A stretch of DNA of 30,214 nt from a virus (taxonomy: Duplodnaviria; Heunggongvirae; Uroviricota; Caudoviricetes), in the IMG/VR virus record IMGVR_UViG_2541047931_000006. One strand, written 5' to 3'. The translations under genes were made by a program, and so were the position numbers. Of the stretch, positions 20,221 through 21,027 are shown one piece after another; positions within the stretch are counted from its first letter, which is position 1, and every line of letters starts with the position of its first letter. The notes below the pieces were generated by a model that had not been told where the DNA came from, did not search any database, and saw only the letters and a program-made list of their open reading frames with translations.

Positions 20221-21027
20221 ATGAAGAAAAAATACGAACTGGTTGTTAAAGGGATAAATAATTACCCGGATAAGATTACTGTTACTGTGGCACTGGAAAT
20301 TGGTGGGTATCCGTTACTGTTGTTGCCAAATGTGGCGATTAGTCTTGACCGTACTGAAGGTGCCACGCTGGAGTTTTACGAAGCGGAGGCGAAAAAGCAG
20401 GCGAAGCAGTTTTTCATGGATGTTGCTACCGGGTTATGTGAAGGGAACGAACCGTTGCAGGAAAAGCGCCCCATCATTTTAGAGGCGCAGGATGTGTTGA
20501 TAACCTACAGAGGAAAACTACCGGGAATAATTACTTGTTCTCTGAAGATGCCGCCGTCAACACTGCGGTCAGAAAAAGAGGCGTCTTGTCTGCAGTCTGA
20601 GTACTCCATTACGGTTAAAAGTGCCGGAGAGGAAGGAAATAAACGTTATTTTATTGCGTCTGCACCTGATAAAGATCAGGAATGGGAGTGTAACCGGCCA
20701 TCCTTTGTTGTATACGGAGATGGCGGGAAAATAACCATCTCAGAAAATGGGAAATTAACACCGCCATCGCACCAGCATAGTGAGGCGCTCATTGAATTTG
20801 CCATTGATTACCTGAAGAACAATAAAAAGCAGGGGCTGATGAAGTGCATTGGTCGTTGCATGGGATATCTGCAGATAGCTGCTGAGATTGAAGCGCTGGC
20901 CAGTGGTGCGGACAAGGATGCAGTTGTGCGGGAGGCTCTTCTTCGTGATTTTGATAATCCGCCCTTTAAAAAAGTGCCGGCTTACTGGTTTCATCCAGGA
21001 CTGACTTATCTTAAAGGACGTATATAA
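20221..21027 (+). CDS. Hypothetical protein of unknown function inserted between holin and endolysin
   Basis: 268-aa ORF with RBS GGGAGAG; no signal peptide or motif I can assign; appears lower in GC than its neighbours. Confidence 0.55.
   Translation: MKKKYELVVKGINNYPDKITVTVALEIGGYPLLLLPNVAISLDRTEGATLEFYEAEAKKQAKQFFMDVATGLCEGNEPLQEKRPIILEAQDVLITYRGKLPGIITCSLKMPPSTLRSEKEASCLQSEYSITVKSAGEEGNKRYFIASAPDKDQEWECNRPSFVVYGDGGKITISENGKLTPPSHQHSEALIEFAIDYLKNNKKQGLMKCIGRCMGYLQIAAEIEALASGADKDAVVREALLRDFDNPPFKKVPAYWFHPGLTYLKGRI

Follow-up and report, generated by a model that had tools for sequence, protein, structure and literature searches.

The closest described systems are ydfR of the cryptic prophage Qin in Escherichia coli K-12 and orf5 of the Stx2-converting phage 86. 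K-12 YdfR (b1555, UniProt P76160) is a cytoplasmic protein of 103 aa that consists of an N-domain and a short helix. Its gene is part of the series essQ-ydfR-rrrQ-rzpQ, in which essQ encodes an S21-type holin and rrrQ a lysozyme. A two-hybrid screen with RNase G yielded residues 1-72 of YdfR, and the same fragment gave a stronger signal with RNase E 1-597 than with RNase G; in addition, purification of Strep-YdfR brought along RNase E 1-598 and nucleic acid that resisted DNase (PMC13232886). Overexpression of ydfR changed few transcripts and left growth unaffected, and under standard conditions the lysogen shows hardly any ydfR reads (PMC13232886). A survival-gene screen of MG1655 also lists ydfR, with the streptomycin MIC raised threefold. 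In the literature searched, “DUF1327” occurs only as a passing mention in a single paper, and “ydfR” mostly denotes a melanoma cell line.

The orf5 product of phage 86 (BAF34037.1) has 268 aa and is likewise encoded between s and r. It is 92.5% identical over its full length to the protein studied here, with differences in the last ~40 residues of the C-domain. The GenBank note that describes orf5 as homologous to COG0188 topoisomerase is rejected, as no search supports it.

The DNA analyzed here (the window) is a 30,214-nucleotide stretch of a Caudoviricetes virus, IMG/VR record IMGVR_UViG_2541047931_000006. It carries a 268-aa ORF between the genes of a pinholin and a SAR endolysin, in the gene order and with the 4-nt junction also seen in Qin. 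K-12 YdfR and the window protein are both cytoplasmic and have homologous N-domains (43% identity over aa 1-89), whereas the latter extends to 268 aa by means of an 80-residue linker and a conserved C-domain of ~110 aa. The ORF belongs to the YdfR (DUF1327) family as one of its long forms and counts among the accessory genes of enterobacterial lambdoid prophages. Both the family and the exact protein are already present in databases, and the discovery is in that respect a modest one.

The gene and its place in the lysis cassette

The ORF runs from 20221 to 21027 on the + strand, with an ATG start and 268 codons plus a stop. It is preceded by the gene for an S21-type class II holin (pinholin) at 20001-20216 (+), a 71-aa protein with a dual start M1/M4 (MYQMEK at 20001) that matches PF04971 (E 2.3e-32) and the holin families phrog_20/9876, and whose sequence recurs with 100% identity in the holins of many Stx phages. 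The Shine-Dalgarno sequence of the ORF, GGGGAGAG, lies at 20206-20213 (+) within the last codons of S, its GGAG core ~9 nt from the ATG. Since the gap between the S stop and the ATG is only 4 nt, translational coupling of the ORF to the pinholin gene is plausible; a junction of 3-4 nt also occurs in K-12 Qin, phage 86, and the related locus L003. Downstream, a 42-nt spacer (21028-21069) leads to the endolysin gene R at 21070-21603 (+), whose product matches PF00959 lysozyme (E 5.6e-24) and phrog_7 endolysin and has a G/A-rich, SAR-like N-terminus. Rz/Rz1 follow R at about 22246-22740, and the antiterminator gene Q is located at 13163-13852. The first-pass annotation had reported a well-formed ORF with a good RBS, co-oriented with and tightly packed against a pinholin gene that ends at 20216 and followed by a SAR endolysin; both the coordinates and this anatomy proved exact.

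Its reading that the product has no signal peptide also holds. The protein contains neither a signal peptide nor a transmembrane segment (the highest Kyte-Doolittle mean over 19 residues is 1.42), and its pI is 6.8. The ORF has no match to a lysis PHROG or lysis Pfam family, and with no SAR or signal sequence its product is not of a canonical lysis protein type. A search for promoter-like or terminator-like sites on the + strand between S and R returned none, and transcription from the Q-dependent late promoter should therefore cover the gene as well as the lysis genes; we infer that the gene is expressed late, together with them. Its GC content of 45.7%, against 53-55% in S, R, Rz, and nanS-p, gives it a moron-like composition.

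Occupancy of the S-R slot among prophages

The first-pass annotation regarded S and R as normally adjacent and the ORF as an exceptional cargo gene, a premise that fails for E. coli prophages, of which Qin with its ydfR at the same junction is an example. For a survey of the slot, 80 IMG/VR loci were picked solely by their near-identical holin, and 71 of these had both S and R. S and R are adjacent, 1-4 nt apart, in 11 of the 71; the slot holds an N-domain-only gene or remnant in 36, a C-domain with no N-domain in 12, both domains in 11, and something else in one. YdfR-family sequence thus fills the slot in 59 of 71 cassettes (83%). The cassette comparison that the earlier annotation had proposed does reveal a variable insert, as the content of the slot ranges from empty through N-only and C-only to both domains. 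It had also named the finding that would speak against cargo, namely a standard lysis accessory protein at this position in most relatives: a homologous gene does occupy this position in most of them, but YdfR is not known to be a standard lysis accessory.

Among 5426 complete E. coli genomes, holin DNA occurs at 8935 places in 2450 genomes, N-domain DNA at 4261 places in 1759, and C-domain DNA at 952 places in 777. Sequenced phage records include 434 with the window-type holin and 103 with YdfR-like sequence. The carriers include Stx1a phages, Stx2c phages, some Stx2a phages, and O104:H4 prophages; many Stx1a and Stx2c phages retain aa 1-112 only, and most Stx2a phages are without the gene. 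In every E. coli or IMG/VR locus with intact flanks, the order is holin, YdfR gene, lysozyme. N-domain alleles that range from 54% to 98% identity stand next to identical holins and vary independently of the holin alleles. In E. coli prophages the slot is therefore usually filled, and its occupant is dispensable, given that S and R are adjacent in ~15% of cassettes with the same holin and that most Stx2a phages do without the gene; usual occupancy and dispensability contradict the idea of an exceptional insertion. A large share of E. coli prophages, Stx phages included, have a YdfR-family gene within the lysis cassette. Stx phages need the late operon and lysis to release their toxin, and an accessory protein produced alongside S and R could therefore influence timing or yield.

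The homologues of Salmonella enterica prophages, annotated as hypothetical proteins (e.g., P0143, P0190, and P0235), share with the window protein the layout of N-domain, linker or coiled coil, and C-domain, along with the invariant C-domain motifs. Their identity to it is only 30-35%, and the Pfam DUF1327 model misses most of them. Unlike the window gene, their genes come after the antiterminator Q and a toxin-antitoxin moron and before the holin. In these Salmonella lambdoid prophages S and R overlap, the holin belongs to PF04971 or PF16080, and the homologue lies in the late operon, adjoining a class II holin and a lysozyme. Given this position between Q and the holin, the gene is associated with the 5′ portion of the late operon and with class II holin/SAR lysozyme cassettes, and not with the S-R junction itself. 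In three Salmonella loci (L092, L094, and L096), the Q-holin region has ParE with an HTH protein, or HicAB, directly upstream of the long YdfR homologue, and the R-Rz interval of the same loci carries a KilA-N protein or an N6/N4 methyltransferase as cargo.

A second gene accompanies the long form in many E. coli loci and in one of the Salmonella loci (L094). This gene, orf6 of phage 86 (phrog_1853), encodes 104-105 aa and is convergent to the long YdfR gene that it follows. It is found on the - strand at 4809-5123 of L007, 5652-5966 of L003, and 4807-5124 of L094; its E. coli and Salmonella products are 42% identical and have no Pfam match. Phage 86 has it in a 410-bp module between orf5 and R that is flanked by GATAA(A)TC repeats. 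Alignment of the window with phage 86 DNA places the precise absence of this module at 21028-21069, where only the 42 nt of the spacer are left.

Family membership, coding constraint, and domain architecture

The first-pass annotation recognized no motif in the protein. Residues 1-100 match Pfam DUF1327 (PF07041, the YdfR family) with 146.1 bits, where the cut-off is 25 (E 3.8e-43), and the whole protein matches PHROG 1085 (E 4.9e-158). Near-identical database proteins bear the NCBI name “YdfR family protein”, and a database cluster at 92% identity to the window protein has 584 member sequences; clusters of the 268-aa form hold hundreds. Copies in the locus L083 and in E. coli N32 are ~99% identical to the window protein. 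N32 is the closest complete genome (99-100%), with a DNA identity of 99.3% in the N-domain and 100% in the C-domain.

Comparison of full-length orthologues with the window sequence gives a dN/dS of 0.35-0.55 for the N- and C-domains alike; dS rises to about 1 for divergent N-domains, and ten full-length relatives contain no stop codons. These ratios and the conservation of homologues in Salmonella indicate that this is a real coding gene. The RefSeq/PGAP annotation nonetheless labels the intact 268-aa ORF of N32 and O104:H4 a pseudogene, “YdfR family protein, incomplete, missing C-terminus”, and retains aa 1-112 only. The copies equivalent to window 20221-21027 that carry this label lie at 8322-9125 of L001 (O104:H4) and at 2551-3357 of L098 (N32). 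As the O104:H4 copy has no stop codon, the pseudogene call is an annotation artifact, one that conceals a conserved, uncurated C-domain.

Alignments show the YdfR family to be modular, with a DUF1327 N-domain, an extension, a variable middle, and a conserved C-domain. In an AlphaFold2 (AF2) model built with a 115-sequence alignment, the N-domain (DUF1327 core; aa 1-73, 20221-20439, + strand) is composed of three beta strands and a long helix with a pLDDT of 65-87. At its residues L7, I12, G47, L50, Y53, and A61, conservation in the E. coli and Salmonella sequences is 90% or more. The variable linker (aa 74-154, 20440-20682, + strand) is predicted to be disordered (pLDDT about 25, spanning about 20-40). 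The C-domain (aa 155-268, 20683-21024, + strand) is modeled as a three-strand meander and four helices with a pLDDT of 73-90. It displays the motifs K208-x2-GR-x2-G-x-LQ-x2-A-x-I and DF-x3-PFK-x5-W-x2-PG-x2-Y-x3-R; residues K208, G211, R212, G215, L217, Q218, A221, I223, R237, L241, D243, F244, P248, F249, K250, W256, P259, G260, Y263, and R267 are at least 90% conserved, and the domain is maintained down to the 30-35% identity of the Salmonella proteins.

The middle region is a coiled coil in relatives of 287-333 aa and is missing from the 268-aa form of the window. In the alignment, these relatives have DDIESRIEKLE...ELNKK inserted at an SEK|E junction, and the 268-aa form resembles a 333-aa form from which ~65 coiled-coil residues may have been lost at the SEK|E repeat. 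Forms of 185-213 aa, made up of the coiled coil and the C-domain with no DUF1327, also occupy the S-R slot, and a 305-aa form ends in a C-terminus of a different type.

The C-domain is not covered by any curated family. Searches against Pfam with single proteins and with all 115 alignment members (E ≤ 1) return nothing except DUF1327, profile searches against NCBIfam and PDB sequences give no match, and a fold search with the AF2 model yields no significant match. Among 1.84 billion representatives, searched exhaustively with phmmer, only 70 clusters are found, and a scan of GTDB species genomes finds only three loci, in Escherichia and Shigella, which marks the family as narrow and enterobacterial.

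Possible functions

The explanation that we favor, at a probability of roughly 0.35, is that of a late, cytoplasmic, non-essential accessory protein whose N-domain docks on RNase E and/or RNA and whose C-domain is a second binding or effector module. The gene would be transcribed from the Q-dependent late promoter with the lysis genes and probably be translationally coupled to the pinholin gene. Its product would be soluble, ~30 kDa in size, and located in the cytoplasm, and ~80 disordered residues would link its two folded modules. From its homology to K-12 YdfR, the N-module would most likely bind RNA and/or RNase E, the latter in its catalytic N-terminal half; the conserved C-module would represent an undescribed domain. 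The most likely role would then be a non-essential late function directed at host or phage RNA metabolism, exerted in the cytoplasm and not by disruption of the envelope. The link to RNase E derives entirely from overexpression, two-hybrid, and co-purification assays on the 43%-identical paralogue; binding of RNase E or RNA by the window protein, and any effect on RNA decay, is what we infer by analogy. T4 Srd, T7 gp0.7, and phiKZ Dip, all of them small phage proteins, bind RNase E in the course of infection and modify RNA decay. A functional analogy between them and YdfR is possible, although they have no sequence or fold similarity to it and, unlike YdfR so far, have demonstrated effects on RNA decay.

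A moron, that is, mobile cargo that would serve the lysogen or phage competition through exclusion, anti-defense, or a defense effector, with the convergent orf6 product as its partner or immunity protein in many relatives, is a somewhat unlikely alternative. It would account for the lower GC content relative to the flanking lysis genes, the heavy shuffling of modules (N-only, C-only, N+C, and the alternative C-terminus of the 305-aa form), the joint travel of the gene and orf6 to different late-region positions in E. coli and Salmonella, and the short repeats that bound the orf6 module. It fits less well with a co-oriented gene that is tightly coupled to S and has no + strand promoter of its own, and with the near absence of ydfR reads in the K-12 lysogen (PMC13232886). 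The window allele moreover has no orf6, which implies that the C-domain is tolerated in the absence of this partner. As to the defense role that the first-pass annotation had entertained, no support emerged, since the PADLOC-DB models match neither the window protein nor one Salmonella homologue (0 families at E ≤ 1) and K-12 ydfR is essentially untranscribed in the lysogen. It is unlikely that the product is instead a cytoplasmic regulator of pinholin/SAR-endolysin lysis timing that would bind the cytoplasmic part of the holin or otherwise tune its triggering, at a ratio to S fixed by translational coupling. Strict linkage to class II holin and SAR lysozyme genes in two genera and the conserved 4-nt junction with its RBS inside S are what such a regulator would predict. 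The Keio ydfR mutant, too, is CPRG-positive (envelope-leaky) in a genome-wide screen, as listed in the supplement only (screen cited in PMC13232886), but this signal could reflect polarity of the kan cassette on the downstream rrrQ. Dispensability of the gene next to identical holins argues against this role, as do the independence of N-domain and holin alleles, the pairing of the Salmonella homologues, upstream of S, with two holin families, and the lack of a membrane segment. The model for such a regulator is T4 RIII, which targets the T holin in concert with the RI antiholin. Like the window protein, RIII is soluble, cytoplasmic, and encoded with or near lysis genes; no homology between the two was detected.

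Two further readings are less probable. In one, which we consider improbable, the ~110-aa C-domain is a new effector or binding module that DUF1327 tethers to RNase E or RNA, such that long YdfR proteins would be adaptors that reprogram late RNA decay; alternatively, these proteins might form a new class of cytoplasmic regulators of pinholin/SAR-endolysin timing, with the product of the convergent phrog_1853 gene as a modulator where it is carried. The other, very improbable, takes the gene for a functionless, decaying remnant, an internal-deletion derivative of a longer gene. The apparent loss of ~65 residues at SEK|E, the survival of aa 1-112 alone in many Stx1a and Stx2c phages, and the RefSeq flag would agree with decay. 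Against it stand an ORF that is intact in 10 of the 10 relatives examined, clusters of the 268-aa form with hundreds of members, dN/dS below 1 in both domains, a C-domain retained in Salmonella at 30-35% identity, and the artifactual nature of the RefSeq call itself.

Neighboring features

Several other features are present around the cassette. An IS3-family element at ~17228-18494 (orfA 17306-17617, orfB 17737-18483) splits a gene for a NanS-p-like SASA esterase (16737-19850) into a DUF1737 N-terminal part at 16737-17234 and the rest at 18474-19847. Since it lies a short way upstream of the lysis cassette, within the late operon, the element may be polar on S, the 268-aa ORF, and R, with less late transcription reaching the ORF. 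Three tRNA genes, Met-CAT, Arg-TCG, and Arg-TCT, lie at 15513-15762, downstream of Q and a DNA methyltransferase gene, at the site that tRNAs and stx occupy in Stx phages; the window has no stx genes. The R-Rz interval (21604-22245) contains a 642-bp, AT-richer insert (46% GC). At 21694-21726 the insert has a strong hairpin that resembles a terminator (a 15-bp stem and a run of T), and beyond this hairpin come three or four very small hydrophobic ORFs (28-51 aa). Two of them have the common motif A(L/M)AFAI(K/R)xVA, and in E. coli N32 the whole set is annotated as three hypothetical proteins.
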